59,167 nucleotides of DNA from Candidatus Binatus sp. (GCA_050010075.1 JBEKLS010000004.1:1-59167), one strand, 5' to 3'. Positions 24,848 through 59,167 are shown, counted from the first letter of the stretch. Translations and numbers: made by a program. The notes: generated from the letters alone by a model not told the origin.

Positions 24848-24896
24848 GCCCGATCAGAAGCAAACCATATGCCGGGAGCAGGCGCGAATCTGCGTA

Positions 24897-26876
24897 TCAG
24901 GTGTAGTCCGATCGGATCTGGTGCTTCTTGAGCTTTCGATATAGCGTGACTCGGCTCACTCCCAGCATCACGGCCGCTCGCGACAGGTTGTCGCCTGAAG
25001 CGCGAAGCGCTTCCAGGATAGCTGCGCGTTCCGAATCCATCAGCAGCGTCTGGGCCTTCTGCGGCGGTTGAGCAACGGCAGGAGCGAATTGGCACGAGGC
25101 ACAAGCCGGCGAACATACATACTCTGGCAGATCAAATTCGCTGATGGTGGCGCCCGTCATGGTCTGCTTTGCCTGCGACAAAGCGTTGCGAAGCTCGCGC
25201 ACATTGCCCGGCCAACAGTAGCTCTCCATTCGTTCGATGGCCCGGTCCGTGATATCGGTGCCCGTGCCTTTGAGAAAGTGCGCAACCAGCGCACGGATAT
25301 CAGCACGCCGCTGACGAAGAGGCAGAAGCTCGAGCATCTGAGTGCTCAACCGATAGTACAAATCCTGTCGAAATGAGCCATCCTGGATCTTCTTTTTGAG
25401 ATCCACGTTGGTTGCGGCCAGTATTCGAACGTCAGCCTCGAAGGGTACCTCCGAGCCGACGGGGAAAACGCGCTTCTCCTCGAGGATCCGCAACAAATGA
25501 CTCTGCATTTTGGGCGACATCGCCTCGACTTCATCGAGGAACAGAGTGCCACCGTTGGCCGATCTGAATTTTCCCTGCCGTCCGCGCCGCGTCGCACCGG
25601 TAAAGGCTCCCTCGACATATCCAAACAGTTCGGCGCCCAGCAATTCGTCGCTCATGGCGCCGCAGTTGACGGGAATGAAAGGCCTGGAACGACGCGCGCT
25701 CGCGTTGTGGATAGCCTGAGCGAACATCTCTTTTCCGGTTCCTGATTCGCCCGTGATGAGTACCGCGTCGTCGGTATAGGAGATGCGTTCCGCGCGCTTC
25801 AGAGATGAAGCAAGGATGTCGCTGACTCCTACAATGTCGGCAAAAGCGTAGGTCGGCCTCCATGGAGAGTCAGCACCGGCTTGCCGTTGCGAGCTATCCA
25901 TGATCGCAATATATCCGGCGACGGTTCCTTCATTGACGACCGGATACAACTGGGCCAGACCGGTAAATCCAGCGCGTCCGCGCAAAGCGATCGTATCGGT
26001 CGACCGGGAAAGCGTGGTTTCCGGAGCGACCAGGTTCATCTCCGCTAAACTGGATAAGGAGCGCGGCGAGCCGAGCGGGATTCCTAACAGCTTGGAGGCC
26101 TCAGGCGACGCTCTCAACAGCAGAGAATCAGCGGTGATAGCAAGACATGCTTCAGACTTGTATCGATCGCGAGCCGAGGCGTAGTTCTCGTACAGCAAGA
26201 GCCGGGCGTTCGCCGATTTCGAATGAAGGCTTCTCTCAATCAGATGAGCGCAGTTTGCGATCAGGGCTTTGGCCTTGGCGTGAGCTTCTTCCTGGAATCC
26301 ATAAATACAGACGATCCCAGCCAGGCGGTTGGAGAACAAGTCCCTGATGGGAGCTGCGTGCCCGGCCCAGTTTTGTCCCACCTGAATGTAATGCTCGAAA
26401 CCCACTATTGATATTGGACGCTGGAGACGGAGACAGCACGCGAGCGAATCCGTGCCCATCAGTTCCTCGGTCCAGCAGGCTCCGGAAATCGCATTTATTT
26501 CTTCGGCGGCGGTCAGCGCGCGCGGACCAGCTACAAACTGAAGAATTCGACCCTGGGCGTCTGCCACTAGCAGAAGCACATTGGGAAGATCTCTAAGCGC
26601 ATCAAACGTGAAATCGAGAATCGGAGAGCAAACCTGACTCAAGATGCTCTCTGACTGGAGTCGGCTGAGAACGTCGTCTTCCAGAACTCTGGGAGCTTTG
26701 CACTTCTCCGGACTTAAGCCGTACGACCTACTGCGCAACCAGGACTCACGCACCTCAGGTCGCAACTTCTGGAGGTTTGCGTCCTCGATCCCCGACATGA
26801 ATCTTTCCCAGAGTCGAGACACTACGCGCTGATCAAATGTCAACACATTACAACTGCTCCGTAACAAATGATTCAA
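24897..26876 (-). CDS. GAF-domain sigma-54-dependent enhancer-binding activator (AcoR-like, Fis HTH)
   Basis: SWLRS and GAF N-terminus, GESGTGKE Walker A, GAFTGA, FLDE, RILAATN, WPGNVREL, C-terminal LGVSRVTLYRKL. True start may be GTG 26846 or TTG 26843 (GGAG upstream). Confidence 0.95.
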   Translation of the reverse strand: MNHLLRSSCNVLTFDQRVVSRLWERFMSGIEDANLQKLRPEVRESWLRSRSYGLSPEKCKAPRVLEDDVLSRLQSESILSQVCSPILDFTFDALRDLPNVLLLVADAQGRILQFVAGPRALTAAEEINAISGACWTEELMGTDSLACCLRLQRPISIVGFEHYIQVGQNWAGHAAPIRDLFSNRLAGIVCIYGFQEEAHAKAKALIANCAHLIERSLHSKSANARLLLYENYASARDRYKSEACLAITADSLLLRASPEASKLLGIPLGSPRSLSSLAEMNLVAPETTLSRSTDTIALRGRAGFTGLAQLYPVVNEGTVAGYIAIMDSSQRQAGADSPWRPTYAFADIVGVSDILASSLKRAERISYTDDAVLITGESGTGKEMFAQAIHNASARRSRPFIPVNCGAMSDELLGAELFGYVEGAFTGATRRGRQGKFRSANGGTLFLDEVEAMSPKMQSHLLRILEEKRVFPVGSEVPFEADVRILAATNVDLKKKIQDGSFRQDLYYRLSTQMLELLPLRQRRADIRALVAHFLKGTGTDITDRAIERMESYCWPGNVRELRNALSQAKQTMTGATISEFDLPEYVCSPACASCQFAPAVAQPPQKAQTLLMDSERAAILEALRASGDNLSRAAVMLGVSRVTLYRKLKKHQIRSDYT

Positions 26877-30137: not shown

Positions 30138-31712
30138 ATGCGGATCAGATACAGAGGGGCCTCGTACCTCGGAGTATTTCTGGTAGGCCTTGTTTTGCTT
30201 TCTTCCAAGGTAGCAGAGGCCTGTCAAACTTTTGATGAATATGGAATAACCACCTGCCTCACGTTCTTTAGTTCAGCCTACATAAATTTACCGGACGAAA
30301 GGCGCACCGTATTCGACGCGAATACCGAAACATTTTTTACCAGACATCCAGACAATCTCCTCTTTCAGAATAATCAGCTCCTGGCTCTGTTTGACGGCAA
30401 CCCAGAGAAGTTGTCGGAAGCGGTCGGATTCCCGATACATTGGCATCTCGAGATGCGTCCTACCTACGATTCAACTTACGACGCTACCGGGTTCGGTCAA
30501 GGGACTTACCACTCATATCTCTCGTCGCTGGCGACCAACGTTAGCGGTAGCATGCAGGACAACTACCAGCCGTTGTTCAGAGAGTATTACGTTGATCTTC
30601 ATCCTAAGCATTTCTTTATTCGTCTTGGTCGTCAGATCATTGCCTGGGGCAAATCGGACGGCGTGTACATGCTGGACATAATCAATAACTTCAATCTTAT
30701 TAATCCTCAGATCTTCAACGAGCAGCAAATCAAGATTCCAGTATGGGCCGCCAATATTGTCTGGCAGCCTTATCCAGGCGGCGAACTGCAGGGGATCTTC
30801 ATTCCCCAGTACTACCCTACATACTACACTGGTCTTCAAATGAAAGGCGGTTTCCCGATTAACGGGTCCTATGGGGATTTCACCTATGGAAGTGTAGCGG
30901 CCATCAACAACGAACTAAATGGTTCCCTCGGCTTTAAAATTCCGACCGACGTAAACAACCCCTCATCCAGACTTAACAACTGGGTATACGGCGCTCGATG
31001 GTCCGAGCAGCGCGGAAGCATCCACTATACGTTGAATTACCTGTACACCTGGACCACCGGTTACATCTACTACCCCAACACCGGAACTTATGCGACGGCC
31101 ACGGCAGTCAATCTGCGCCCGCACCGTATGAATGTCGCAGGAGGTTCTGCGGATTATGAATTCAACACTGGCAATCCCTGGATTGATGGAACCGTTTTGA
31201 GAGCGGAGTCGGCGGTTACGATTGGAGATGTCTACTATGAGGGCAATTTGGGCAACCCAGTCGACGTAACGCATTGGGGCATTCTGGGCGGTGTTGACCG
31301 AGAAATCCTTGGTGACTATCTGGAGCGGCCGGTGTTCTTCAGCTTTCAATATTGGCAAGACTGGGTCCTACACCGTAATAACGAATGCGCGTGTGGCGGT
31401 AACGAGGACATGTTCCAGGGTCTAGGTTACCAAGGCAGTCATTCGGGTCTGCGCGGCATGTATGAGAGTCTGTCGACGCTCTATATGGACAAGACTTCGA
31501 TGACGGGGGACGTGCTCGATACTTCGTTGTCGGCGGTGTACGAGTGGCAGTTCCACGATTGGTGGCTGCAGCCGCATGTCGGTTATCGAATTAGCGATAA
31601 TACCACCTTGGGTTTGGGCTTCAACATCTATGCGGGCGGGAAGCAAACACCTTACGGAGAATTCACCAACACATCGAACGTGTTCTTCGAACTGCATCAG
31701 ACTTTGTTGTAG
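30138..31712 (+). CDS. DUF1302-like outer-membrane beta-barrel protein
   Basis: Signal peptide; FREYYVD...RLGRQIIAWGKSDG..LDIIN motif; alternating beta pattern; located upstream of DUF1329-like and MMPL genes. Confidence 0.75.
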   Translation: MRIRYRGASYLGVFLVGLVLLSSKVAEACQTFDEYGITTCLTFFSSAYINLPDERRTVFDANTETFFTRHPDNLLFQNNQLLALFDGNPEKLSEAVGFPIHWHLEMRPTYDSTYDATGFGQGTYHSYLSSLATNVSGSMQDNYQPLFREYYVDLHPKHFFIRLGRQIIAWGKSDGVYMLDIINNFNLINPQIFNEQQIKIPVWAANIVWQPYPGGELQGIFIPQYYPTYYTGLQMKGGFPINGSYGDFTYGSVAAINNELNGSLGFKIPTDVNNPSSRLNNWVYGARWSEQRGSIHYTLNYLYTWTTGYIYYPNTGTYATATAVNLRPHRMNVAGGSADYEFNTGNPWIDGTVLRAESAVTIGDVYYEGNLGNPVDVTHWGILGGVDREILGDYLERPVFFSFQYWQDWVLHRNNECACGGNEDMFQGLGYQGSHSGLRGMYESLSTLYMDKTSMTGDVLDTSLSAVYEWQFHDWWLQPHVGYRISDNTTLGLGFNIYAGGKQTPYGEFTNTSNVFFELHQTLL

Positions 31713-46463: not shown

Positions 46464-49400
46464 TCACTTCGCGGCCAGTAGCAGACTCTGCAAGCGATCG
46501 AGATCGACCGGTTTCACAAGGTGCTCGTCGAAACCTGCTTCAAAGGCGCGTCGACGGTCCGACTCCTGCCCATATCCAGTGACCGCGATCAATCGAACTG
46601 AAGCGAGTCCCGCATCCGCGCGGAGCCGGCGCACCAGCTCGTAACCGTCCATTACGGGCAGGCCGACATCGATCAACATGACATCGGGTTTGAATGTGCC
46701 CACCAACTCGAGCGAGGAGGGACCGTCGAACGCGGTGCGCGTCAGGAAGCCGAGTTCGGCGAGCGCTTCGGCGAGGGTTTCGGCGCCGTCTTGATTGTCG
46801 TCAACAATCAGCACCTTCCTGCGCGAGCTCGTGGACTCAGCAACTGCTTGCGGCTCCGAAACGATCGTAGCCGACAACCGTGGCGCAGTTGCCTGGCCTT
46901 CTGAGGCCAAGGGAAGCGTAACCACGAATTCACTGCCCTTGCCGATACCTTCGCTATGCGCGGAGACGCTGCCTCCGTGAAGCTCAACCAGGCTCTTTAC
47001 TATGGCGAGTCCGATTCCTAATCCGCCTTGCGCCCGATCGCTTCCGCGCCCGCCCTGCGAGAACAGGTCGAATACCTGCGGTAACATTTCGGACGAAATC
47101 CCGATGCCATTGTCCCGCACACGAAGGACGATCTGGCGATTTTCGCGGCTGGCGCGAATCCAGATCTTACCTCCGCGGTCGGTGTATTTGGCGGCATTGG
47201 TGAGCAGGTTGCTAATGACCTGCGAGAGCCGCGTTGGGTCCGCTTCCAGCTTTAATCCGGTATTGGGCACCGTCGCGATAAGGTGATGCATCTGCTGCTC
47301 GATGATCGGACTTGCCATCTCGATGGCCTTGACCACGACAGTTATCAGTTCAAGCGGCTCGAGCTTGAGCTGAATCTTGCCGCGCGTAATTCGCGATACG
47401 TCCAGCAGGTCATCGATCAGGTTGGCCAGATGACGAACCTGGCGCTCGATGATGTCGCGCTCGCGGCGAAATGAGTCGCTGTCGCGCATCTGGATCAGGT
47501 TGAGCGAGGTGAGAATCGGCGAGAGGGGATTGCGCAGCTCATGGCCAAGCATCGCAAGGAATTCGTCTTTGGCGCGGTTCGCCTCTTCGGCCAATCGTTT
47601 GGCTTCCTGCTCCCGTGCGATTAGCTGCTCCCTTTCTTCGAGAAACCTTTGCCGAAACCGATGAAGCTGCAGATGTGCCCGCACCCGGGCGATAAGTTCA
47701 CGCGCGGAAAATGGCTTCACCAGATAATCGTCCGCACCGTGGGTGAGTCCCTCGACCTGAGACTCCTCCCCTGCGCGGGCGGATAGCAGAATGATTGGAA
47801 TCGAGCTGGTCCTGGGATTCTCGCGCAAGGCACGCAGCAGCCCATAGCCGTCAAGCTTGGGCATCATCACATCGGTCAGGACCAGATCCGGAAGACTCCG
47901 GCTTATCGCATCCAGCGCCTCCAGACCATTGCGGACCGTTTGAACCGTACAGTACGGCGACAGCAGGCGTTTGATGTACCCACGCATATCCGCGTTGTCA
48001 TCGACCAGGAGCACCTCGGCATTTCCGTCAGCCACTGCCTCTGGTTTGCCTTGCTCAACGCGAGTTATCTCAGGAGGCATCGTCTCGCTTCGGCGTTCAC
48101 TGCTCAGCCAGGTGGCCGCCTCTTCGAGATACGGTGCTGCGCCGACTGCGGTCGACGCCACGCTTCGCCGCGCGCTGATGCGATCGCTCGGCAAATGCGC
48201 GCTGCCAGTGGGTAACGAAACGGTAAAAGTACTCCCGCTATCCAGACGGCTCTCAACTTCTATAGTTCCACCGTGCATCTTGACCAATTCGTACACCAAG
48301 GCGAGTCCGATGCCCGATCCCTCGTAGGTGCGGGCCCGCGCGCCTTCCACCCGGTGGAACCTTTGAAAAATCTTCGTCAGTTCATGTTCCGGTATGCCAA
48401 TTCCGGTATCGCTAACCGACAGCTCGAAATTGCGTCCCGCCGATTTCAGGCGGACCGTGATGGTGCCGTGAAAAGTGAATTTGAAGGCATTGGAGATAAG
48501 GTTGAGGACGATTTTTTCCCACATCTCCGGATCGACAAAACACTTGCTGTCGATTCGCTCGCACTGAACGTTCAATGCGAGTCCCGCCCTTTCCGCGAGT
48601 GACTTAAAAGAGGAAGCCAACTCTGCCGTCAGGGCGGCAGTGTCGGTCTCCTGATACGAGGCTTGAACTCGGCCCGCTTCGATCCGGGTGAAGTCGAGCA
48701 AGGTGTTGACCAACTTCAGGAGGCGCAAGCCGTTTCTCTGCACCAGCTGCATCTGTTGCCGATGTTCGTCCGACAATCCGGTGCGCCCATCCGCCAGATC
48801 CTCCAGCGGGCCTAGCATCAGCGTCAATGGAGTGCGGAATTCATGGCTCACGTTGCTGAAGAAGGTCGTCTTGGCGGCATCGATTTCGGCCAGGGCCTGT
48901 GCCCGCTGGCGCTCTTCCTGGTGTGCACGTGCGTTGGCGATTGCAGTTGCGATCTGATCTGCCGCGAGTTGAACAAAGTCGCGATATCGATGATCGAGCT
49001 TGAGCCGCGGGCTAATCCCGGCAATGAGAAACCCGTACGGGCGGCCCTGCCCGGAACGCCGCAGCGGTGCGACGACTGCAGTCTCCGTAGGCTCGGGCCA
49101 GCGTCCACCCGGTAGCCGCCCGAAGCGATCTGCAAGATCAGTAAGCTCGAGGCTGCTGCCCCTCTTCTCGACCTCTGCCAGCGGCCACGAGTCACTCGTG
49201 GCATCCTCGAGCGTCCCATGATCAGTACCGATAATCTCGGGAGCGCCGAGGTGGTTGCGATCGATCCCCACTGAGCTTACCAGGCGCGCATGGTTGCCCT
49301 CAGACTCGATGAGGTAGAGGAGCGCGAAGGGAACATCAGAGGGATTGGCGCCAAGAATTTCCGCTGCAGTCGCGCATGCTTCCTCGGCCGTTTGCGCTTC

Positions 49401-49952
49401 GGCACCGCGCGCTGCCAAATCGCGCAAAGTTTTGAGGCGCCGTTCGGTTAATATCTGCCCAGTGGTCTCCTGCACGGTAGTGAGAATGCCGCCCACGGCT
49501 CCATCGTCCCCGGGAATCGGACTGTATGCGAAAGTAAAATAGGTCTCCTCGATGTATCCGTAGCGATTTACTTCGAGAAGCATATCGGCGCTGAAAGTCG
49601 CGGGGCCGCCGCTCAGAATTTGCGTCGCCATCCGCTGTACTGCGCTCCAGACTTCTGCCCAGACCTCAAACGCCGGTTGCCCAATCGCCGCCGGATGTTT
49701 GGCGCCGAGCATCAGCCGATAGCCGTCGTTGTACAGGTGACGCAGCTCGGGCCCCCACCAGATTCCCATTGGGAAGCTATTGCCCAGCATCACGCTGACC
49801 ATGGTGCGTAGGCTGGCGGGCCATTGGGCGACCGGACCCAGCGGATTGTTGGCCCAATCTATTGTACGGAGCAGCGCCCCCATCTCGCCCCCTCCGGCCA
49901 GACAATGGTCCAAGCTGTCCGATGAGGGACTCTGTGAGGGATCTCTGCTCAT
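46464..49952 (-). CDS. hybrid sensor kinase: PAS/GAF-HisKA-HATPase-REC-HisKA-HATPase-REC
   Basis: GGEMGALLR.IDW N-terminus; SHEFRTPL and GHELRNPL H-boxes; two G-boxes; receivers DVMMP and DVGLP. Confidence 0.94.
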   Translation of the reverse strand: MSRDPSQSPSSDSLDHCLAGGGEMGALLRTIDWANNPLGPVAQWPASLRTMVSVMLGNSFPMGIWWGPELRHLYNDGYRLMLGAKHPAAIGQPAFEVWAEVWSAVQRMATQILSGGPATFSADMLLEVNRYGYIEETYFTFAYSPIPGDDGAVGGILTTVQETTGQILTERRLKTLRDLAARGAEAQTAEEACATAAEILGANPSDVPFALLYLIESEGNHARLVSSVGIDRNHLGAPEIIGTDHGTLEDATSDSWPLAEVEKRGSSLELTDLADRFGRLPGGRWPEPTETAVVAPLRRSGQGRPYGFLIAGISPRLKLDHRYRDFVQLAADQIATAIANARAHQEERQRAQALAEIDAAKTTFFSNVSHEFRTPLTLMLGPLEDLADGRTGLSDEHRQQMQLVQRNGLRLLKLVNTLLDFTRIEAGRVQASYQETDTAALTAELASSFKSLAERAGLALNVQCERIDSKCFVDPEMWEKIVLNLISNAFKFTFHGTITVRLKSAGRNFELSVSDTGIGIPEHELTKIFQRFHRVEGARARTYEGSGIGLALVYELVKMHGGTIEVESRLDSGSTFTVSLPTGSAHLPSDRISARRSVASTAVGAAPYLEEAATWLSSERRSETMPPEITRVEQGKPEAVADGNAEVLLVDDNADMRGYIKRLLSPYCTVQTVRNGLEALDAISRSLPDLVLTDVMMPKLDGYGLLRALRENPRTSSIPIILLSARAGEESQVEGLTHGADDYLVKPFSARELIARVRAHLQLHRFRQRFLEEREQLIAREQEAKRLAEEANRAKDEFLAMLGHELRNPLSPILTSLNLIQMRDSDSFRRERDIIERQVRHLANLIDDLLDVSRITRGKIQLKLEPLELITVVVKAIEMASPIIEQQMHHLIATVPNTGLKLEADPTRLSQVISNLLTNAAKYTDRGGKIWIRASRENRQIVLRVRDNGIGISSEMLPQVFDLFSQGGRGSDRAQGGLGIGLAIVKSLVELHGGSVSAHSEGIGKGSEFVVTLPLASEGQATAPRLSATIVSEPQAVAESTSSRRKVLIVDDNQDGAETLAEALAELGFLTRTAFDGPSSLELVGTFKPDVMLIDVGLPVMDGYELVRRLRADAGLASVRLIAVTGYGQESDRRRAFEAGFDEHLVKPVDLDRLQSLLLAAK

Positions 49953-50050: not shown

Positions 50051-51604
50051 CTAGCGAGCAGCATCAGGCCGTATCGATGAACGGCCTCCATCCAGAGCCG
50101 CGGGATACGGCCGGAGCTTGTACAGCGAACCCGCCGCGCCCGGATAAAACATATCGCCGTAGTAGGAAGGCTGGACCATCGTCCCGGAGGTCATTGCGGG
50201 CAATCGGGCCGAACGCGCGATCTCCTGGCCCGTCGCTGCGTTGCGCCACACGACCTCGTCCTCCGTGTTGATATCCGGAATCTCGGCACCGGGAATGTCC
50301 GAGCCTACGATGACGCGCTGGTCGGGAGGGCCGATAATCGCGATGAATTCGGTCGTTGTTTGCGCTACCTTCCAGGCCGTCTGCAGTCCCGAGGAGCCGA
50401 GATGTACTGCCGCGATCTCGCCCGGCAGCGCGTCCATCGCGTAGATCAGGTTCGATTGCGGATCGACGGAGACCGTTGCCGCATTCCAACTGACAGCCTG
50501 TGTGCCACCAGGAGCCTGCTTGCAGAATGCGATCTTGACGAGGGGCGGGATAGGATCGCCGGCAAAGGGTTGGATCGTGAACTGCTTCGAAGCATCTCGC
50601 TGGTTGATCGCGAAAACGCTCAACGGCGTGGATGCAGGGAGCCCATTGGATTGGCCGACGACCCAGTCGTTCAGGACTACAAGCGCCCACCCCGGAGTCT
50701 GGCCGGGGAGGAGCAGCGTACCCGGATTCCATCCGGAATCCAGGGTCAGGCGTCCTTTTCTGACTTCATAACGGATGCAAGTGTCCACTACGAACAGATA
50801 AACGTACTCGTGACCATTATGCTCGCCGACCGTCACGCGCCCGATAACGTCGGCCGACAAGGTTGTCTGGTCAATGACCTTCATCGTGCGCGGATCGACC
50901 GTGACCAGGACCGAGTTGGGGACGTCCGAGGGGTCAGGACAATCCGCGAGCGCGTTGGGACCCTGAACGGTACAGCCAGCCTGACGATAGAATGCCTTGG
51001 CGATGATCGTGCCGTCGCTGGTCGCGCTGAATCCGTTGTACGTTGTGTCGGCTGGTGCCGCCTGGCCGGTTGGTAGTGCGAGCATTGCAAGCACATGGCC
51101 CGTGGAAGGGTCGATCTTCGAGAGGCGATACCCATAGATGACGTACAACTTGCCGTTGTTGAGAAGGGCTTGGGTGCCGGGATAGTCCCACTCGCCGCTA
51201 TCCGAAGTATTGATCAGTTGAGTGTACCAAACGGGTTGAAGGGTGCCCGGATCAATCTGTGCGACGTAAGCGCCGATGGAAGAGAAATCGTTGCCTGAGC
51301 CTCCGCCGTACAGAACCATTTGCTCAGGACTCAAATAGGTAATGTTCCAGGCGGAGGGGTAGATCTCATCCGACTGCACCGTAGTGACGGTGTTGTCTCC
51401 CGAGAAGAGTCCGCCGAACCTTGCCTGCGGAAAGAGATGCGAACGGCCGGAATCATAGTGTTCGAACGCGGCGAGCGATGGATACCAGGGACGATTTGTT
51501 TCATTGCCATGCGCGTAGGAAGCGGTTACGAACGACAGCAAACCGATAACCGCCAACGCCATTCGATAGTTCTTTCGGCCCTTACGCGATTCAATTGCTC
51601 CCAT
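50051..51604 (-). CDS. secreted hypothetical protein (possible beta-propeller)
   Basis: Signal peptide ending ASYA; repeated xIDPxT/G-type turns (IDPGT, IDPSTG, VDPRT, VDPQS, NAATG). Confidence 0.75.
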   Translation of the reverse strand: MGAIESRKGRKNYRMALAVIGLLSFVTASYAHGNETNRPWYPSLAAFEHYDSGRSHLFPQARFGGLFSGDNTVTTVQSDEIYPSAWNITYLSPEQMVLYGGGSGNDFSSIGAYVAQIDPGTLQPVWYTQLINTSDSGEWDYPGTQALLNNGKLYVIYGYRLSKIDPSTGHVLAMLALPTGQAAPADTTYNGFSATSDGTIIAKAFYRQAGCTVQGPNALADCPDPSDVPNSVLVTVDPRTMKVIDQTTLSADVIGRVTVGEHNGHEYVYLFVVDTCIRYEVRKGRLTLDSGWNPGTLLLPGQTPGWALVVLNDWVVGQSNGLPASTPLSVFAINQRDASKQFTIQPFAGDPIPPLVKIAFCKQAPGGTQAVSWNAATVSVDPQSNLIYAMDALPGEIAAVHLGSSGLQTAWKVAQTTTEFIAIIGPPDQRVIVGSDIPGAEIPDINTEDEVVWRNAATGQEIARSARLPAMTSGTMVQPSYYGDMFYPGAAGSLYKLRPYPAALDGGRSSIRPDAAR

Positions 51605-51744
51605 CGTATGCTCTTGGAAATCCCTCCCAACACACGGCCGATGCGCTGACGTCAACATTCTGTTGCCGACATTTCGGAAATTATGACGTTTTCCCACCTC
51701 GTGCTCTAGATAGCCGCTCGGATTCTATGTCGACCGGGAAGCCC

Positions 51745-51777
51745 GGACTAAGCGGCTCTGGCCAGGGCGCGACGCGC
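51745..51777. repeat. 33-bp direct repeat, left copy (orphan copy of the BBE gene 3' end)
   Basis: GGACTAAGCGGCTCTGGCCAGGGCGCGACGCGC; 30/33 identical to 57836-57868; minus strand reads ARRALARAA-stop. Confidence 0.85.
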
Positions 51778-51928
51778 TGAAGCTGTCGAGCCCATCAGTC
51801 GTCCGATCCTCTCGCGAACCCGGGCCAAGAGGGGTAGTCAGCCGCCAAAGTCTTTCATAGACTCGGCGGGCCCGAGGGGATAAGGACACGCAGACTCTGT
51901 CGAATCGAGCGCGGAGTCTCGGGCCGCT

Positions 51929-52915
51929 ATGCGCAACAAGCAACTGATCGCTCTTGGCCTCGGAACGGCCCTGCTTGTTTACCTGATTTACGAAACCGGC
52001 TCCGCCGGCCTGGTCGAAAACCTCAAGCTGATCGGACCGAAGATCGTCTTCATTATCGGCATCGAGCTGATCGTCGATCTTTTCAACACGGTCGGATGGT
52101 GGTTCACGTTTGCGCCCGACCTGCGTCGCGGCATTTTTGGCTTTCTCTACCTGGTGCGGCTGGCGGGCAGCGCGCTGAACCAGGTCCTGCCGGCAGCCTC
52201 GATGGGGGGCGAGCCGGCGAAGGTGATGCTGTTGCGGCCGCATCTGCCGGCGGCCGCGGCGACTGCCAGCGTGCTGACTTCGCGCGTGGCTTTCACCTTT
52301 GCCAAGGCTATTTTCATCGCATTCGGGATGCTGATCACGTGGCATCGGCTCAAGCTACCAGAGGGTCTGTCGAGCGCGCTGCTGATCGGATTCATCCTCA
52401 CGATGTGCGGCCTGATTGTCTTCCTGATGCTCCAGCTTCGAGGATTTGCGCGAGTGACCGCGCGATTTGGAGGCCTCATCGGATTGCCCGAAAAATGGGT
52501 CGCGACAATCGAGGGTGCTTCGAGCTCGGTCGATGCTCACGTGGTGAGCTTTTACCGAACACGCCCCGGCGACATGGCGCGAGCAATCGTCGCGCATCAG
52601 TTCGCCTTCGCGTTCGGCGTGCTGCAGGTGTCGCTGCTGCTCGGATGGCTCAACCTGCCGAACGATTGGCAGACCAGCCTCGCGATCGAGGCGTTCTCGG
52701 CCCTGGTCGGCTTCATCATCTTCGTGGTGCCGGGCTCGGTCGGGGTACAGGAAGTGAGTAAGGTTCTGATCTTCGCGGCGCTGGGATTACCGACTTCCGC
52801 CGGGATGGGCGTGGGAATCGCCTTTCGCCTGAACGATATCGCAGGTTCGATTATCGGTCTGGCGGTATTCGCACTACTTCAAGCACGGGCCGTTCCGCGG
52901 ATGGAACAGGATTAG
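51929..52915 (+). CDS. lysylphosphatidylglycerol-synthase-TM / flippase-like membrane protein
   Basis: About 8 TM; RLAGSALNQVLPAASMGGEPAK and VPGSVGVQE motifs of the LPG_synthase_TM family. Confidence 0.82.
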   Translation: MRNKQLIALGLGTALLVYLIYETGSAGLVENLKLIGPKIVFIIGIELIVDLFNTVGWWFTFAPDLRRGIFGFLYLVRLAGSALNQVLPAASMGGEPAKVMLLRPHLPAAAATASVLTSRVAFTFAKAIFIAFGMLITWHRLKLPEGLSSALLIGFILTMCGLIVFLMLQLRGFARVTARFGGLIGLPEKWVATIEGASSSVDAHVVSFYRTRPGDMARAIVAHQFAFAFGVLQVSLLLGWLNLPNDWQTSLAIEAFSALVGFIIFVVPGSVGVQEVSKVLIFAALGLPTSAGMGVGIAFRLNDIAGSIIGLAVFALLQARAVPRMEQD

Positions 52916-52988
52916 CGCAGAGGTATTCCGCGTCGAGGTGTTAGCCGTGGGGTACCGCAAGGCCACAGAACCAAACAGGCAGTCAAAA

Positions 52989-54269
52989 TCATACACCGCT
53001 TGCGCCAACGGTCTGCGCACGAGCTGATCGTGCTGCCTCGTTGATGCACCAGGCAGCGTGAATAGCCGCTGTGACTCCCGCCCAGGCGACAGCCGAGTAA
53101 AATGAAATTACGGGGACTCCCAGGAAAAACCCGGGCAAAAATAACCAGGTGTAAATGTTGCGCCGACCCGCAACGAGTCGGAACCGGGACAGAAATGCGG
53201 TGGCATTGTCGACGCTTCGGTGCCACTTAACGTCGGCCACCGAGTAGACAATGTTGTCGGTTAAATCGAACGCGACCATTAGAAGGGCCGCATGCCAGGC
53301 AAACTTCGATCCGCTCTTGTGGAGAAAGAATCCCAGAGCCAACCACCACGAGTTCTCGTAAAAGAAATCCAGTATGTGCTCGTACTCGCCCGCTTTTGAG
53401 GTGGTGCGTGTGATGCGCGCGAGCTTGCCGTCCACGCCGTCGAGCACCTCGACGAAGATTGCGAGGAGAACCCCGACTCGCAGCCACCCAATGGCATAGA
53501 GCGCCGCCACCAAGAACCCTAAAAGAGTGGTGGCTAGAGTTACCTGGTTGGCGGTGATCGCAGTCGGTGCGAGACGGCGGACAAGCAGGTTTTCGAAGAA
53601 TGGGTCGAAATAGCGCGCGGGCAGCTCCTGCGTCCGCCGCTGGATATAGTCCAGAAGAATCTGCCACGCCTGTTCCGCATCGTCGTCGTTCCTGATGCGG
53701 TGCAGATGGAGCGGAACGTCACCGTGCATGGCCTCCCAATACGTCGGCAGAGAGCCGACATTGACGACATTGACGTGAGCGGCCTCAAGATTCGGTGCGT
53801 CGAGCGATTTCGCGCGGAGAAACGCCGCGGTCTCGGGCCGTTCGCCTATCCGCGGACTCAGGATCACCTCGGTATTTTGCGCGGTCAGCCAGTAGAGGAG
53901 CCGTTGATCGATCAACAGATCTGCTGCGACGAGGATGAATCGATCGTGAAGATGAGCGCGAGCGTCACGGAGCATCTCCCATACTGTGGTCCCAGAGGTG
54001 TCTACGTATAAGACGTCTTTGCGAACGCGCTTTGATGGCGGCGGCAATGACAAATCTATCGGCTTCAGAAGCAGCACGGACTCGACGGTTTCCAATTCTG
54101 AAAGTTGACGAAGCAGTCGTTCGAGGAGAGTAATCCCGCCCACAATGCGGAGCGGATTTGCGGTCGCATCGGGGCAGACCACTACTGCCTGAAACCGCGC
54201 TAACGCGGTCGAGGGAGTGGCCGGTTCCATGGCGTCGGCATCCATGGATTGCTCAAGCGCGCCGCCCAT
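52989..54269 (-). CDS. CDP-alcohol phosphotransferase with N-terminal nucleotidyltransferase-like domain
   Basis: ITANQVT, DGVDGKLAR signature; N-terminal VGGITLLERLLRQL resembles NTP-transferase domains. Confidence 0.85.
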   Translation of the reverse strand: MGGALEQSMDADAMEPATPSTALARFQAVVVCPDATANPLRIVGGITLLERLLRQLSELETVESVLLLKPIDLSLPPPSKRVRKDVLYVDTSGTTVWEMLRDARAHLHDRFILVAADLLIDQRLLYWLTAQNTEVILSPRIGERPETAAFLRAKSLDAPNLEAAHVNVVNVGSLPTYWEAMHGDVPLHLHRIRNDDDAEQAWQILLDYIQRRTQELPARYFDPFFENLLVRRLAPTAITANQVTLATTLLGFLVAALYAIGWLRVGVLLAIFVEVLDGVDGKLARITRTTSKAGEYEHILDFFYENSWWLALGFFLHKSGSKFAWHAALLMVAFDLTDNIVYSVADVKWHRSVDNATAFLSRFRLVAGRRNIYTWLFLPGFFLGVPVISFYSAVAWAGVTAAIHAAWCINEAARSARAQTVGASGV

Positions 54270-54272
54270 ATC

Positions 54273-55268
54273 CTATTGTTCTCCGGTCGCGAGGACGCGC
54301 TCCCGTGCTTTGCGTCCTATGCCAGAGGCGAGCGAAATACTGCTCCGCAGGCTCTTCAGAGGTTCTCCGAGCGAATGCGAGATCATTCGCACGCAACCGA
54401 GACAACATCCCTCTTCGCACGGCTTATGGCGATTGTTGCTTCGCAGCTCGGCGAGGTCCATTTCGGCCAAGGGAAAAACGTAATCGCGCTGCTGCGCGCA
54501 CCACTGCACGCCTCCCTTCGAGTTGACGTACAAAAACTTGAACCCTGCCATGCATTTCCACTTTCTCGAAAAATCGCCGAGAAGCATCTCCTGTAAATGC
54601 TCGCCATAAAAGTTCATCCCATCGAAAACGCCATAGCGGCGAAGAATATCGAGAAACTTCCGGCCGTGAATCGCGATCCGGCCGCCACGGCCGTGCATGA
54701 TTGAAAAGCCGAAGGCGAAAGGAAAGTCCTTCAGCATCTCGCGGAAGCGATCATAGTCAGGGAATGTTTCCTCATTCAGGACGGTCTGAACCTCAACCTG
54801 GAACTTGGCGCGCTTCGCGAGCAGCTCCATCTTCGGGAGAAGCGACTTCAGGGATTTCAAGGAGCGGGGAGACGGTTCGATCGAATCGACCGACAACTGC
54901 ATAAAGTCGAGTCCAGAGGCATTAAGGCGCTCGATGTTGCGTTCGCCCAGAAAAAATCCATTTGTGATGACCGTTGTAACGTTCGAGCCGCCGCGCTTCG
55001 ACTTGGTATGTGCGATCAGATCGTCAAGGCCGGGATGGAGCAAGGGTTCACCGCCGAGGAGGTCGTAAACCAGCACGCCCAGTTCGTCGAGCTTGTCGAT
55101 ACGGACCTTCAGGTCCGCCAGCGGGACGATCGGACCCCCGGGCGTGTACTCGTCGCAGTAGTCGCAGGTCAGATTGCAGTCGTCAGTGACGACGACCTGC
55201 GCATACATAGGACGCGAATCCAGCACGCGCTTAGCGCCTGTGAGCACAAACTGCTTATCGACTGCCAT
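54273..55268 (-). CDS. radical SAM protein with twitch/SPASM-like domain
   Basis: CNLTCDYC, GGEPLLHP, TNG; C-terminal CMAG...WC...CEEGCCLGC. Start 55268 follows GGAGG (the ORF is open to 55346). Confidence 0.9.
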   Translation of the reverse strand: MAVDKQFVLTGAKRVLDSRPMYAQVVVTDDCNLTCDYCDEYTPGGPIVPLADLKVRIDKLDELGVLVYDLLGGEPLLHPGLDDLIAHTKSKRGGSNVTTVITNGFFLGERNIERLNASGLDFMQLSVDSIEPSPRSLKSLKSLLPKMELLAKRAKFQVEVQTVLNEETFPDYDRFREMLKDFPFAFGFSIMHGRGGRIAIHGRKFLDILRRYGVFDGMNFYGEHLQEMLLGDFSRKWKCMAGFKFLYVNSKGGVQWCAQQRDYVFPLAEMDLAELRSNNRHKPCEEGCCLGCVRMISHSLGEPLKSLRSSISLASGIGRKARERVLATGEQ

Positions 55269-55385
55269 AAGGGCCTCCGAGGTATTGGCGAGCCATCTCG
55301 CCGGCTGTTGCATGCCGATATGGGAAACTGAACGGCCTTGCGCCATTCCACTTCTGAATGCCGATTGCGATCGCGCCCGTAAGCA

Positions 55386-56735
55386 TCAGAAGGGATAGTC
55401 AATTCCGCTAAAGATGGAGATGCCTTCGTTGCCGTATCCGACATCGACAAACCCGACCACGAACGGATCGGCGATTGCGCGAAAGCCCATCCCTCCCGCT
55501 GGATGAAAATCGTCTACCGGGTTGCTGGTGAAATCGTGGCTCACCTTGCCGAGGTCGAAGAACGGCGCGAGCTCGATGATGGCCTTGGTCTGAAAAATAT
55601 TGAGCGCGTAGACCCGCGTTCGCAGCTCAACGTTGAAAGCCTCGATGTTGTTGTCGCTGAAGCGGGCGGTGCCAAAGCCGCGATTGGTCGCGCGATCGAC
55701 AAAGAAATCGCTGCCTTCGCCGCCGAGCCGGGCGAGCGACCAGAAAGGTGTTTCGTTGCCGGCCGGCGAATACTGGATCAGGGTATGTGCAGCCAGCACG
55801 AATCGCTGGCCGAACGGTTCATAATGGCTGAGCTCGGTACCGAATCGCGTGTACGAAAATGAGCTTCCGAAATCTCGATCGGCAAAGCCGGCGAAGACCC
55901 GGTAGATTCCTCCCCGGGTCGGGAGGTCGGTCGAATCGCGATTGTCAAAGGAGGCGACCAGTCCCTGATATATGTCGCTGCCACCGTCGAGGCCCTTAAC
56001 CTTGGGAAACAACTGCGCGGGAGATGGAAGATCGAAGGCGCCGGAACCGATGCGCACATATCGTGGCCGCGCCTCCACTCCGACCTGAAACTGTTCCGAG
56101 ATGTTGATTCCCAGCAGGCCGCGAAAGTAGACCTGCTTGGTCGCATAGTTGGTTTCATTGCCTTGCGAGGAGTGGTTGCCGATCCCGTAAAATCGCTCGG
56201 TGGGGTCGTCTTCCCAAAAAAGTTCGCCGTCGAATGACCACCATTTTTGGCGGTCGCGCCCAATGGAATAGGTCAAATCGATGTTGTGCGCTTTTTCTAG
56301 CTGCGCGCCACCGGTAACTGACCAGTGAACGTCGCTGGAGGGATAATCGAGATAGCGGAAATCGCCCCCGACACCGAGCGTCGTATTATTGGTGATGTCG
56401 GGCGCGATGATGCTGCTGACGTCGCCGTTGGTGTCGTGCTGCAGGAAGACCGTCATCAGCCCGTAGGTGGTGCCGCCATTCGGACTGGTCGCTACCTCGG
56501 GTACGGGAATGAAAGGCCATGAGTTCGGATCGAGCGGCTGAAAGGCGTGCGCGGAATTCGGGCGGGCGATCGCGAATACAAATGCCAGAATCAGCAGGAA
56601 TGCCTGCTGCCAGTCGACGCGTGCGGCGGATTTTCTCCGATCAGCCAAATCAGCTAGCCACTTGGGTGCGCAGAAGTACGTCCCGGGACCTTTGTCAGTT
56701 AGCGTGGGCCGAAATAATCTGCGGGTAATTTGCAT
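55386..56735 (-). CDS. Omp85/BamA-TamA-like outer-membrane beta-barrel without POTRA domains
   Basis: DNRDS...PTRG, RGFG.ARF, ELR, FFDLGKV, GMGFR, C-terminal YPF beta-signal; start uncertain. Confidence 0.8.
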   Translation of the reverse strand: MQITRRLFRPTLTDKGPGTYFCAPKWLADLADRRKSAARVDWQQAFLLILAFVFAIARPNSAHAFQPLDPNSWPFIPVPEVATSPNGGTTYGLMTVFLQHDTNGDVSSIIAPDITNNTTLGVGGDFRYLDYPSSDVHWSVTGGAQLEKAHNIDLTYSIGRDRQKWWSFDGELFWEDDPTERFYGIGNHSSQGNETNYATKQVYFRGLLGINISEQFQVGVEARPRYVRIGSGAFDLPSPAQLFPKVKGLDGGSDIYQGLVASFDNRDSTDLPTRGGIYRVFAGFADRDFGSSFSYTRFGTELSHYEPFGQRFVLAAHTLIQYSPAGNETPFWSLARLGGEGSDFFVDRATNRGFGTARFSDNNIEAFNVELRTRVYALNIFQTKAIIELAPFFDLGKVSHDFTSNPVDDFHPAGGMGFRAIADPFVVGFVDVGYGNEGISIFSGIDYPF

Positions 56736-56841
56736 TTCGTTCGCGAGTAACGCAAGTGTGCATGTGCATTGGCCGACGAGCCGATATCGCGTAAAAATTC
56801 GCCCAAGAACCGGGGTCTCGGGACAGGGGAATTCAGAGCTG

Positions 56842-57810
56842 ATGGATCCTTCGATCGTAGCGAAAGGCGCGATGGCTTGGCTCGGGGTGAAGCCATCTCC
56901 GATCAGTCTCGCCTACGAACTCTCGTGGCTTTGCAACCTGGAGTGCGCCTACTGCGATCGCCACACTCCAATGGCTAATGAGATGACGCGCGATCAGATT
57001 TTCAAGGCGCTCGGCGAGTTCGTCGAACTCGGCGCGAGCAGCGTCAGCCTCGACGGTGGCGAGCCGCTGGCTCATCCCAATGTCGCGGAGATCGTGCAGT
57101 TCCTGGTCGAGCGCGAGGTCGAGGTGTCGATGCACACCAACGGCATCCTGGTGCCGCGTAAGATTGATACGATTCGCCAGCTGAAAAAAGTGAAGATCAG
57201 CCTCGACGGACCGCAGGAAGTCCACGATTCGATGCGTGGGGCCGGTTCATTCGACAGCGCAATCGGGGGAGCGCGGGCCGCCATCCAGGCGGGCGTGCGG
57301 GTAGAGTTCACTTGCTCGGTGGGTCGTCACAACGCGGACGCGATCGGACAGCTGCTCGACATCGTGGAAGGTCTCGGCAGCAGCGTCATCTTCCAGCCCG
57401 TGCGTAACAGCCTCTTCGTCTATACGCAGCGCGACGGTAAGGCGTGGGAGCTGGAGCATCGCCGGAGCCTCGCGACGTTCGCCCAAATCGAGGCTGCGAA
57501 ACGGGCTGGACGAGCGGTGGCAAATCAATGGTCGAGCCTGCGCCATTTCCGCAGCTTTCCGTTCGAGGCGCGGCCGCCCTGCGCCGCAGGGTGGATCCTC
57601 TGCACGATGGATCCCGAAGGCGTGCTTTTCCATTGCGGTGAACGCGATCGCGGCGATCGAACCAACAATGTGATCCGGATGGGCGTGGCAGGCGCGTTTG
57701 CCAACCTGACAAAGTCAGCATGCGGCCAGTGCTGGTGCGCGCGCTCGGTCGAGGAGAACTACGTTTGGGGTCTACGCTTCGACAAAATGCTCCCGCCGCT
57801 GCGCCACTGA
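56842..57810 (+). CDS. radical SAM protein with twitch/SPASM-like domain
   Basis: CNLECAYC, GGEPL, TNG, ISLDG...HD..RG.GSF; C-terminal CAAG...HC...CGQCWC. Confidence 0.9.
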   Translation: MDPSIVAKGAMAWLGVKPSPISLAYELSWLCNLECAYCDRHTPMANEMTRDQIFKALGEFVELGASSVSLDGGEPLAHPNVAEIVQFLVEREVEVSMHTNGILVPRKIDTIRQLKKVKISLDGPQEVHDSMRGAGSFDSAIGGARAAIQAGVRVEFTCSVGRHNADAIGQLLDIVEGLGSSVIFQPVRNSLFVYTQRDGKAWELEHRRSLATFAQIEAAKRAGRAVANQWSSLRHFRSFPFEARPPCAAGWILCTMDPEGVLFHCGERDRGDRTNNVIRMGVAGAFANLTKSACGQCWCARSVEENYVWGLRFDKMLPPLRH

Positions 57811-57835
57811 GGACCGACGGATATTGACGCCGTCT

Positions 57836-57868
57836 GGACTACGCCGCTCTAGCCAGGGCGCGACGCGC
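57836..57868. repeat. 33-bp direct repeat, right copy (actual 3' end of the BBE gene)
   Basis: GGACTACGCCGCTCTAGCCAGGGCGCGACGCGC; includes the TAG stop at 57839-57841. Confidence 0.85.
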
Positions 57869-59167
57869 AGTCGCATAGAGCGCCTCGCGCAAGTTTGATC
57901 GGCGCTCCATCGTGCTGGCGGTCGGCGGGATGCTTTGCGGGAAATGGAAAACCTGCATTGGATCGACCTGCGCCTTGATCGATTCCAGCCGCGACAGATT
58001 GGCGCCGTAGTAGTCCTGCTGCCATGTCGTCAGCGAAGGGTCGGGAAAATTGACGTAGGCCCCGCCGCTGAAATTACGCATCGCCTCATAGAAGTTCGCT
58101 TGCCATTCAAGATTGCTCTGCACAGTGGGCCGGCTATCGTGGGCGCCCCAGCTAAGCGCAAGCGTCATCAGCCACTCACTGTCGCGATGCACAAAGGCGG
58201 TCGCCGCGGGCGCGACTGCGTTGACCTGGGCGCCGGTTTGGAAGAGCACGAAACTCGCCGCTTCAGAAGTGCCGGGCCATGTGCGCAAGAAAGAAAACGC
58301 AGCTGCGATTGCCTCGGAGCTCGGCGGCGCGCCGAAAAATGACGATCGCTCCTGATAGCGGTCGGGAGGTCCGGGCTCGTCCAGGAAGTTCAGTTGCGCG
58401 TCCCAATACGGCAATTGCTCGATGTCGGCGGACACAGGCGCCGCGACCTGGTAAACGGGAGCGAGAATATCGGCCAGCTCGGCCGGCGTGCCCGCAAGCT
58501 GTCCCAGCAGCGTCATAGTAACATCCTGTCCCGCCGCCAGTTGCGCGGGGGTCACGGCCGAAGCGCCAATGCGATTTCCCATGGTTGAGGGAGCATCCCG
58601 AAGCGCATCGACCAGCGCCGCATAAATTGCGTCGGATTGCCCGCTCCACATGATCTCGAAGACGGTAATCAGGTCATCGGCCGGCATGGTCTGCAGGCTG
58701 AAAGAAGTGTTAATCCCGAAGTTGCCACCGCCGCCGCCGCAGCACGCCCAAAATAAATCCGGGTTCTCAGTGGCGCTGAGCGTCAGGATTTGCCCTCCTG
58801 CGGTGACAATCTCGCTGCTCAACACCTGATCGCAACCGAGGCCGTAGCGGCGCATGTTGAAGCCAATTCCGCCGCCCAGCAAAAACCCGGCTGCGCCTAC
58901 TCCGATGCATCGGCCGTGAGTGATGGTCGCATCGGCGGCCTGCAACGCGGAATACAGATCGACGTTGCGAATGCCGCCGCCGATCGTGACGATGCCGGTG
59001 GACGGCGCGAACTGAGCCTGATTGATAAGCGTCATATCGATCATCAGTCCGTGCGTAGTCGAAAACCCGGCATAGGAGTGACCGCCGGACCGCGTAATCA
59101 GCGGGATCTCGTTCCGCTGCGACCATAAAATTGCCTGCGCCACGTCGGTCGCGCTGGCGCATTTGGC
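57839..59167 (-). CDS. FAD-linked oxidoreductase, berberine-bridge-enzyme family (5' end outside the window)
   Basis: RSGGHSY (FAD-His), HGRC.GVG (second covalent Cys), DLFWA..GGGGGNFGI, GAYVNF and YYG.N..RL..IK..VDP BBE domain; the frame stays open to the window edge. Confidence 0.92.
   Translation of the reverse strand, partial: AKCASATDVAQAILWSQRNEIPLITRSGGHSYAGFSTTHGLMIDMTLINQAQFAPSTGIVTIGGGIRNVDLYSALQAADATITHGRCIGVGAAGFLLGGGIGFNMRRYGLGCDQVLSSEIVTAGGQILTLSATENPDLFWACCGGGGGNFGINTSFSLQTMPADDLITVFEIMWSGQSDAIYAALVDALRDAPSTMGNRIGASAVTPAQLAAGQDVTMTLLGQLAGTPAELADILAPVYQVAAPVSADIEQLPYWDAQLNFLDEPGPPDRYQERSSFFGAPPSSEAIAAAFSFLRTWPGTSEAASFVLFQTGAQVNAVAPAATAFVHRDSEWLMTLALSWGAHDSRPTVQSNLEWQANFYEAMRNFSGGAYVNFPDPSLTTWQQDYYGANLSRLESIKAQVDPMQVFHFPQSIPPTASTMERRSNLREALYATARRALARAA

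Follow-up and report, generated by a model that had tools for sequence, protein, structure and literature searches.

A repeat-flanked island in a Candidatus Binatus genome carries a recurring radical SAM, CDP-alcohol phosphotransferase and HpnL-like module with a predicted role in envelope-lipid head groups

A 59,167-nucleotide stretch of DNA from the soil Binatia bacterium Candidatus Binatus sp. (GCA_050010075.1, JBEKLS010000004.1:1-59167; called the window here, with positions counted from its first letter) carries a discrete island of five genes at 51784-57839 (6,056 bp), whose insertion at the 3' end of a BBE-type oxidase gene left a 33-bp duplication. The island encodes an HpnL-like LPG_synthase_TM membrane protein, a CDP-alcohol phosphotransferase (CDP-AP), two radical SAM proteins (rSAM1 and rSAM2) and an Omp85-family beta-barrel. 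The unit that recurs in other genomes consists of rSAM1, CDP-AP and the HpnL-like protein and is accessory; the five-gene set is specific to this strain group. On balance, we favor the view that the unit is an accessory module for a phosphodiester-linked, radical-tailored polyol head group, probably of inositol type, on an envelope lipid, with the donor coming from elsewhere and with Omp85 and rSAM2 as lineage-specific add-ons. An original prediction, made from the sequence of the window alone, had described the five genes as one lipid- or envelope-modification cassette. Its observations were confirmed and its interpretation is partly supported: gene calls and Pfam assignments reproduced the gene order, the strands and the 3-bp gap between the stop of rSAM1, the upstream gene, and the start of CDP-AP. 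The HpnL-like gene is convergent with the CDP-AP gene, and rSAM2 is divergent from Omp85.

The limits of the island were established by comparison with an empty site in another genome of the same genus (G012). Window positions 50052-51783 align there to L100 9017-10749 (92.5%) and positions 57840-59167 to L100 10715-12042 (90.7%), and the two alignments share 35 bp, corresponding to one repeat copy. In G012 the BBE gene directly follows the 548-aa gene (91% identical) that lies to the left of the island in the window. Because the flanks adjoin with a single repeat copy, 51784-57839 is a discrete indel carrying exactly five genes, and the claim that direct repeats delimit the unit is borne out. 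The two 33-nt repeats match at 30/33 positions; the left one spells the same nine residues and stop as the 3' end of the BBE gene, with three synonymous differences, and is joined to no gene. A 22-nt repeat core occurs in exactly two copies in the 4.75-Mb genome (0 for a reversed-pattern control), and beyond the source genome it was met, among the fetched loci, solely at the orthologous G012 site. A dispersed repeat element was ruled out as an explanation, since the core is restricted to the two island flanks. Pfam and NCBIfam scans of the proteins in and beside the island reported no integrase, transposase or tRNA families, and no tRNA scan of the flanks was run. Near-identical DNA is present in peat and soil metagenomes (6 runs, 5 further studies, each with at least half of the sampled words); no RNA run is among the sequencing runs listed with it. 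A contig from the independent peat run X3 (57690-57997) spans the right junction. The Logan contigs on the region are short, none joins across the island, and no listed piece covers the whole stretch. Two further metagenome contigs, one for each side, match the window and then diverge outward: that of run X5 matches the HpnL-like gene from 51920 and that of run X4 the BBE gene from 57846. They suggest related strains with other neighbors at these two positions.

To define the conserved unit, a CDP-AP profile search using one genome per species was carried out; it returned 89 relatives, 80 loci were kept, and partners were scored by tblastn. Counts for the core are based on the 32 genome loci with a CDP-AP match of at least 280 aa. 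The HpnL-like gene lies no more than 500 bp from the CDP-AP gene in 26 of these 32 loci and is usually convergent with it; among the remaining six it lies at 969 bp in one and at 7 kb in another, one reaches a contig end and three have none. Thirty of the loci have enough flank to judge the upstream position, and in nine of them a radical SAM gene directly precedes CDP-AP. Seven of these nine are rSAM1 orthologues at 72-90% identity (L017-L021, L024, L025), accompanied by CDP-APs that are 56-77% identical, and the other two are distant (L022, 33%; L032, 24%). rSAM1 joins the CDP-AP/HpnL-like pair in the close clade only. The match lists of rSAM1 and CDP-AP also have 11 metagenome contigs of identical length in common. 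The accessory character of the module is seen in its scattered distribution: among other genomes of the family 11 of 150 have an rSAM1 orthologue, as do 4 of 32 of the same genus, and a full-length CDP-AP homologue is present in one of the 24 same-genus genomes sampled. Flanks vary among the close loci, with ABC transporters in L011, TauD plus a PLP decarboxylase in L020 and L021, CorA plus a phosphorylase in L172, and a WS/DGAT acyltransferase and a transposase among the further flanking genes. Envelope and lipid-transport genes adjoin several related loci (LptF/LptG upstream in L017 and L018, MlaA in L044, MlaC in L022, MacB/HlyD/OEP in L042), in keeping with the envelope and lipid theme proposed originally. 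Co-occurrence elsewhere, which that proposal called for, was thus found for rSAM1, CDP-AP and the LPG_synthase_TM gene, which recur together, and not for the five-gene set.

Table 1. Features of the island and its borders (positions in the window).
Feature	Position	Strand	Remarks
HpnL-like LPG_synthase_TM membrane protein, 328 aa	51929-52915	+	Pfam PF03706, E 2.5e-20; core member
CDP-alcohol phosphotransferase (CDP-AP), 426 aa	52989-54269	-	CDP-OH_P_transf, E 1.4e-5, residues 239-332; core member
rSAM1	54273-55346	-	Radical_SAM, E 5.8e-15; likely true start M27 at 55268; core member in close clade
Omp85-family beta-barrel	55386-56735	-	Omp85, E 1.8e-15; likely start GTG ~56618, giving signal peptide; lineage-specific add-on
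rSAM2, 322 aa from ATG 56842	56842-57810 (open frame from 56662)	+	Radical_SAM, E 4.5e-20; add-on
Left direct repeat	51745-51777	.	Non-coding relic, last nine codons and stop of BBE oxidase gene; left island boundary
Right direct repeat	57836-57868	.	Functional 3' end of BBE/FAD oxidase gene; right island boundary
BBE/FAD oxidase gene	57839-59143	-	Right neighbor of island

The remaining two genes bear on an alternative much like the original prediction, in which all five form one obligatory pathway: two radical SAM steps would build the product, CDP-AP would link it, the LPG_synthase_TM protein would flip it and Omp85 would insert or expose it in the outer membrane. We consider this doubtful. 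It has in its favor that all five genes lie between the repeats and are jointly missing from G012, and that parts of the arrangement recur. The Omp85-rSAM1-CDP-AP run with a convergent HpnL-like gene is found again, at 57-75% identity, in L019/L126 and L125, which together with the window are the cases of Omp85 lying beside the module. The divergent rSAM2-Omp85 pair is found in L124 (88-90% identical), a locus that ends after these two genes and has a different right-hand neighborhood, with GT2 and Acyl_transf_3 genes beyond rSAM2 and not the BBE gene. Moreover, two loci retain an Omp85 fragment (residues 17-96 only; L171 1993-2223 and L172 6926-7156) directly upstream of rSAM1, in an 88-93% relative of the core module. 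These remnants are deletion relics, Omp85 having once been linked there and later lost. On the opposite side, Omp85 adjoins only in L019 (66% identity) among the CDP-AP genome loci, and seven close-clade loci have the three-gene core without it. In a metagenome scan of 50 Omp85-homologue loci, rSAM1 at 70% identity or above follows in just five (L123, L125, L126, L171 and L172), two of which are the relics and one of which, L123, is identical to the window. No cassette gene is near two Omp85 homologues at 62-64% and about 40 at 49-60%; the five loci at 50-56% that were checked by Pfam lie beside a TPP enzyme, three of them also beside a tRNA-guanine transglycosylase. Being linked in the nearest relatives only, Omp85 is a lineage-specific add-on, and its original listing as a member of the set does not hold. 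The same is true of rSAM2: no orthologue is present in any of the 80 loci from the CDP-AP query, and those at 60% or above (60-62%) were found in 3 of 300 other class genomes, none with a CDP-AP gene nearby, among GT21/GT2, PMT_2 and DegT genes. It is linked only here and in L124, a 90% relative. One of the 62% orthologues (L119, G195:C3 9240-14226) adjoins a glycosyltransferase that scores 307 bits on the HpnI model (cut-off 310), with an LPG_synthase_TM gene nearby, and this locus may be an HpnJ-independent hopanoid or lipid-sugar tailoring cluster. With rSAM2 orthologues residing in such glycosyltransferase and HpnI-like contexts without CDP-AP, the five genes cannot be called one conserved set.

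The two add-on proteins are themselves only distantly related to characterized families. In Omp85, the barrel (PF01103, 57.8 bits against a cut-off of 24) is C-terminal and only about 80 residues separate it from the signal peptide. No POTRA family was reported in the protein at E up to 0.01, no match to PDB sequences was found at the same limit, and the score on the BamA equivalog TIGR03303 is 26.6 bits against a cut-off of 297. A GDSL-lipase-like gene lies divergently upstream of 62-66% Omp85 homologues at two loci (L019 4220-5425 and L128 3146-4366), accompanied in L128 by a distant radical SAM gene. For rSAM2, the best named matches are mycofactocin maturase and HpnH, both far below their cut-offs (HpnH TIGR03470, 87.4 bits against 225). 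It is the second-best HpnH-like protein in the genome, the genuine HpnH on contig C50 scoring 384.5 bits. Its sequence is that expected of a generic SPASM-type enzyme, distantly HpnH-like and mycofactocin-maturase-like. Neither radical SAM protein matches the family model of calditol synthase or of HpnJ, the latter being absent from the matches listed.

CDP-AP scores 26 bits on PF01066 (cut-off 22) and its AlphaFold model, built on 31 homologues (pLDDT 90.4), has a six-helix membrane fold. Whereas the canonical PF01066 signature on TM2-TM3 is D(x)2DG(x)2AR(x)8G(x)3D(x)3D, that of CDP-AP is a variant, D277xxD280GxxAR(x8)G294xxE297xxxD301. D277, D280, G281, A284, R285 and G294 are invariant in 31/31 sequences, and E297 and D301 are at least 90% conserved; in the alignment with AF2299 the third acidic residue is E297, at a spacing of x2 instead of x3, and the fourth is D301. 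The model matches IPCT-DIPPS 4mnd with TM scores of 0.64/0.67 (Foldseek: 445 columns, E 3.4e-14) and AF2299 with a TM score by target length of 0.81, and a profile search of solved structures gave the same pair (AF2299, E 2.8e-10; IPCT-DIPPS, E 6e-7). Like IPCT-DIPPS (A. fulgidus, 4mnd) and AF2299 (4o6m, 4o6n, 4q7c), CDP-AP has a cytoplasmic nucleotidyltransferase-fold domain followed by the six-helix CDP-AP domain, the fusion seen in bifunctional IPCT/DIPPS (NF041135); TM scores are 0.64-0.81, and the DxxDGxxAR...G core is conserved. It differs from both in identity (14-16%) and in the Glu at the third acidic position with its shorter spacing, and neither of the two has a described HpnL-like or radical SAM partner.

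The N-domain also sets CDP-AP apart. Taken alone, it structurally matches IspD, PntC, RmlA and MurU at about 1e-5 and has no match to PDB sequences at E up to 10. A GxGxR plus PK motif marks active nucleotidyltransferases of this fold. This nucleotide-binding signature is missing from the aligned N-domain region in 31/31 family members, while the stand-alone nucleotidyltransferase of L030, beside a distant relative, carries it. Since the signature is missing, the N-domain is probably non-catalytic, and genes in other parts of the genome probably provide the CDP donor. All curated families touched by CDP-AP use inositol phosphate (DIPPS, archaetidylinositol-phosphate synthase, PIP synthase and BT_1523), with scores far below the cut-offs: 41.2 bits against 580 for IPCT/DIPPS (NF041135), where only residues 237-330 match, 26.9 against 170 for PIP synthase (NF045883) and 40.8 against 180 for archaetidylinositol-phosphate synthase (NF040950). 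A complex prediction for CDP-AP and rSAM1, both supplied as alignments, scored 0.00 and gives no verdict either way.

rSAM1 belongs to a strongly conserved family with generic names only. Of its 466 relatives, the best 120 are 65-90% identical and some are labeled Elusimicrobiota; a protein atlas returned unnamed radical SAM clusters only. Across 35 sequences the CxxxCxxC cysteines (C57, C61, C64) are invariant, and six further cysteines are conserved beyond this motif, three of them invariant and three at least 90% conserved; those in the C-terminal part include C265, C283 and C310 (invariant) and C314 and C318 (at least 90%). Pfam SPASM gave no match. The model (pLDDT 76, last 40 residues below 50) has among its fold neighbors the small-molecule, sugar and nucleotide enzymes BlsE, MoaA, viperin, SpeY, AbmM and DesII, is also close to anSME, and fits a twitch/SPASM-like enzyme. 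A role in anti-phage defence was rejected because the PADLOC match to prokaryotic viperin (pVip) covers the generic radical SAM core only (profile positions 5-106/257) and is equal for both rSAM proteins. Outside Binatia, 401 Acidobacteriota genomes contained one rSAM1 relative (40%), with no CDP-AP or HpnL-like match within its 11-kb locus, and no rSAM1 was found in five genomes holding distant CDP-AP loci. One 73% orthologue (G358:C1:2680981-2681976) has an in-frame TAA and may be a pseudogene or an assembly error.

The third core member has HpnL (TIGR03476) as its best curated match, at 117.4 bits against a cut-off of 195.65. A preprint of 2025 on hopanoids gives the function of HpnL itself as not known (PMC12324291). 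Among the companions of distant CDP-AP/HpnL-like pairs (35-42% identity) are an IolG-like GFO/IDH/MocA dehydrogenase, a class-III aminotransferase, a stand-alone nucleotidyltransferase, a HAD phosphatase and a second CDP-AP, and MlaA, MlaC or MacB/HlyD/OEP genes adjoin. The island-bearing genome (G000) also has a resident cluster on contig C50 (L183 3170-9595 and 13944-18989) composed of a B12-binding radical SAM, a 397-aa CDP-AP, HAD, NTP_transf_3, a 273-aa protein without an assigned family, Aminotran_3 and a second HAD-type phosphatase. The genuine hpnH, together with a polyprenyl synthase and squalene-hopene cyclase, is found about 9 kb from this cluster. Counting the island, the genome thus holds two CDP-AP head-group systems that are separate from each other. 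A MIPS gene is present on C126 of G000 and in 9/9 other genomes checked. As a separate observation, squalene-hopene cyclase (23511-25397) and MIPS (31355-31681) genes lie about 6 kb apart on contig C103 of G333, the Rokubacteria genome of L022.

The pathway that we consider probable would run as follows. CDP-AP, as a member of the inositol-phosphate-using branch (nearest AF2299, DIPPS, archaetidylinositol-phosphate synthase and PIP synthase), would join a CDP-activated donor and an alcohol through a phosphodiester. The donor might be CDP-diacylglycerol, or a CDP-polyol from the stand-alone nucleotidyltransferase of the resident C50 cluster, and inositol-1-phosphate could come from the MIPS gene of the genome. 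rSAM1 would tailor either the polyol head group itself or a precursor of it, CDP-linked or phosphorylated, by oxidation, dehydration, epimerization or ring rearrangement. The HpnL-like protein may then act on the lipid-linked product at the inner membrane, either translocating it or carrying out a further transfer step; the flipping and the delivery to the outer membrane envisaged in the original prediction remain conjecture. Omp85 and rSAM2, once recruited, may carry the pathway on to the outer membrane or introduce one more modification.

Several points weigh against this reading. The whole pathway is read from gene context, and activities and products are predictions for all family members. 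The cassette has no MIPS, active nucleotidyltransferase or phosphatase and is thus not self-sufficient for an inositol route. With Glu as the third acidic residue and a spacing one shorter, the activity of CDP-AP cannot be assumed, and the product of its closest solved or curated relatives (DIPPS) is a soluble solute instead of a lipid. The fold neighbors of rSAM1 include the peptide maturases SuiB, SkfB, CteB and PqqE, which leaves its substrate class wide, and the rSAM1 neighborhoods surveyed leave out many relatives labeled Elusimicrobiota. Promoter-like and terminator-like sites in the island do not exceed expectation from shuffles (1 versus 1.9 and 5 versus 5.7). Finally, every genome checked has both MIPS and squalene-hopene cyclase, the island-less G012 among them, so that these genes discriminate nothing; their presence was dropped as an arbiter between the inositol reading and the hopanoid alternative taken up below, as both genes are found in all genomes with or without the island.

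Three further explanations place the product in a different class of molecule. The module could serve hopanoid modification, with CDP-AP or the HpnL-like protein adding a phospho-alcohol to the bacteriohopanepolyol side chain and the radical SAM enzymes tailoring it in the manner of HpnH or HpnJ. This analogy draws on the HpnL match of the LPG_synthase_TM protein, the appearance of HpnH (87 bits) among the best named matches of rSAM2, the rSAM2 orthologue of G195 beside a near-HpnI glycosyltransferase and an LPG_synthase_TM gene, the resident CDP-AP cluster near hpnH on C50, and the presence of squalene-hopene cyclase with a genuine HpnH in G000 and of the cyclase in 5/5 further module-bearing genomes checked. 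The cyclase is also present in G012, however, which makes its co-occurrence uninformative; the HpnL and HpnH scores are far below cut-offs, shc and hpnH lie on C50, apart from the island, and no CDP-AP is known to act on hopanoids. We therefore regard the hopanoid explanation as improbable. Lower still we place a soluble phosphodiester compatible solute resembling di-myo-inositol-phosphate, made as by IPCT-DIPPS, with the membrane neighbors incidental. Although IPCT-DIPPS 4mnd is the top structural match and the IPCT/DIPPS equivalog the top NCBIfam match, although one source labels a relative (P0242) IPCT/DIPPS and although MIPS is present, the equivalog score is 41 bits against 580 and the N-domain, unlike the L030 enzyme, is without GxGxR/PK throughout the family. 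In addition, an HpnL-like membrane protein adjoins in 26/32 loci and lipid-transport and outer-membrane genes recur nearby, all of which makes a soluble product very unlikely. A surface glycan or LPS decorated with a phospho-alcohol, in place of a membrane lipid, would account for LptF/LptG directly upstream in L017 and L018, for GT2 plus Acyl_transf_3 in L124 and GT2 beside the HpnL-like gene in L014, and for the rSAM2 relatives among GT2, GT21, PMT_2 and DegT genes. These glycan-type neighbors are not conserved across the 32 loci, and the characterized CDP-APs of this fold that we know of act on lipids or small polyol phosphates, not on polymers. We give this explanation the least credence of all.

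The envelope-lipid reading has precedents in part. Heaver et al. 2022 proposed, without test, an alternative inositol-lipid cluster in which a nucleotidyltransferase, a CDP-AP and a HAD are grouped and an LPG-synthase homologue is close by (PMC9246714). As described there for Bacteroides vulgatus and Prevotella, this cluster is like the island in being a CDP-AP-centered head-group cluster with an LPG_synthase_TM homologue, and distant relatives of the island CDP-AP carry the stand-alone nucleotidyltransferase and HAD as well. The island differs in having no MIPS, active nucleotidyltransferase or HAD, in adding Omp85 and a second rSAM, in its host, and in its tightly coupled radical SAM, none being mentioned in that paper's account of the Bacteroidetes cluster. 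In Rhodothermus marinus, a MIPS, IPCT and BEPIS route makes CDP-inositol-dependent ether phosphoinositol lipids (Jorge et al. 2015, as cited in PMC4587543 and PMC9246714). There too a bacterial CDP-AP-type enzyme moves an activated polar head group to a lipid alcohol; unlike the island, the operon has MIPS and an active IPCT. For the radical SAM step, calditol synthase (Cds) and HpnJ are parallels: both belong to the radical SAM enzymes and reshape the head group, a sugar or cyclitol, of a membrane lipid. HpnJ, whose gene accompanies those of HpnI, HpnK and HpnL, binds B12 (PMC13459092). The same source, which reviewed radical SAM enzymes acting on lipids in 2026, deals with Tes, Cds and HpnJ among others; its accessible text has 0 occurrences of 'CDP' and so describes no radical SAM enzyme coupled to a CDP-AP. 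Full-text literature searches, supplements not covered, found no description of a radical SAM coupled to a CDP-AP. The original statement that the system is not a described one thus stands insofar as no characterized pathway matches, and has to be qualified in that the CDP-AP/LPG_synthase_TM pairing fits the kind of cluster proposed by Heaver et al.

The proposed alternative bacterial route to inositol lipids awaits experiment, and bacterial lipids derived from CDP-alcohols are only beginning to be mapped. The island offers a minimal three-gene version, naturally delimited by an insertion with an empty-site control and clonable as one piece, in which CDP-AP is paired with a very strongly conserved radical SAM family of uncharacterized reaction. 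Knowing what the product is would bring a further lipid class to light in bacteria that are abundant in peat and soil but uncultured, along with a first function for an HpnL-like protein and possible biomarker lipids. A bolder version of the lipid idea makes the island a self-contained set of genes that can be passed on as a whole and yields an envelope lipid of a new class, in which the rSAM1 family would rearrange or oxidize a cyclitol or sugar-phosphate head group, CDP-AP, its dead N-domain serving as a docking or regulatory module, would link this to diacylglycerol or a hopanoid polyol, and the POTRA-less Omp85 would deliver the product to the outer membrane. We consider it unlikely, though a little less so than the hopanoid explanation; if true, it would provide the first Omp85 whose client is a lipid and not a protein, as well as the first radical SAM coupled to a Kennedy-type head-group transfer.

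Two genes of the window left of the island are recorded for completeness. The 548-aa open reading frame (50051-51697, minus strand) has no Pfam or NCBIfam match and was found in 2 of 46 other same-genus genomes (G012, 91%; G010, 70%). Further left, 46464-49952 (minus strand) encodes a 1162-aa hybrid sensor with PAS and GAF domains, two HisKA/HATPase_c modules and two receiver domains.

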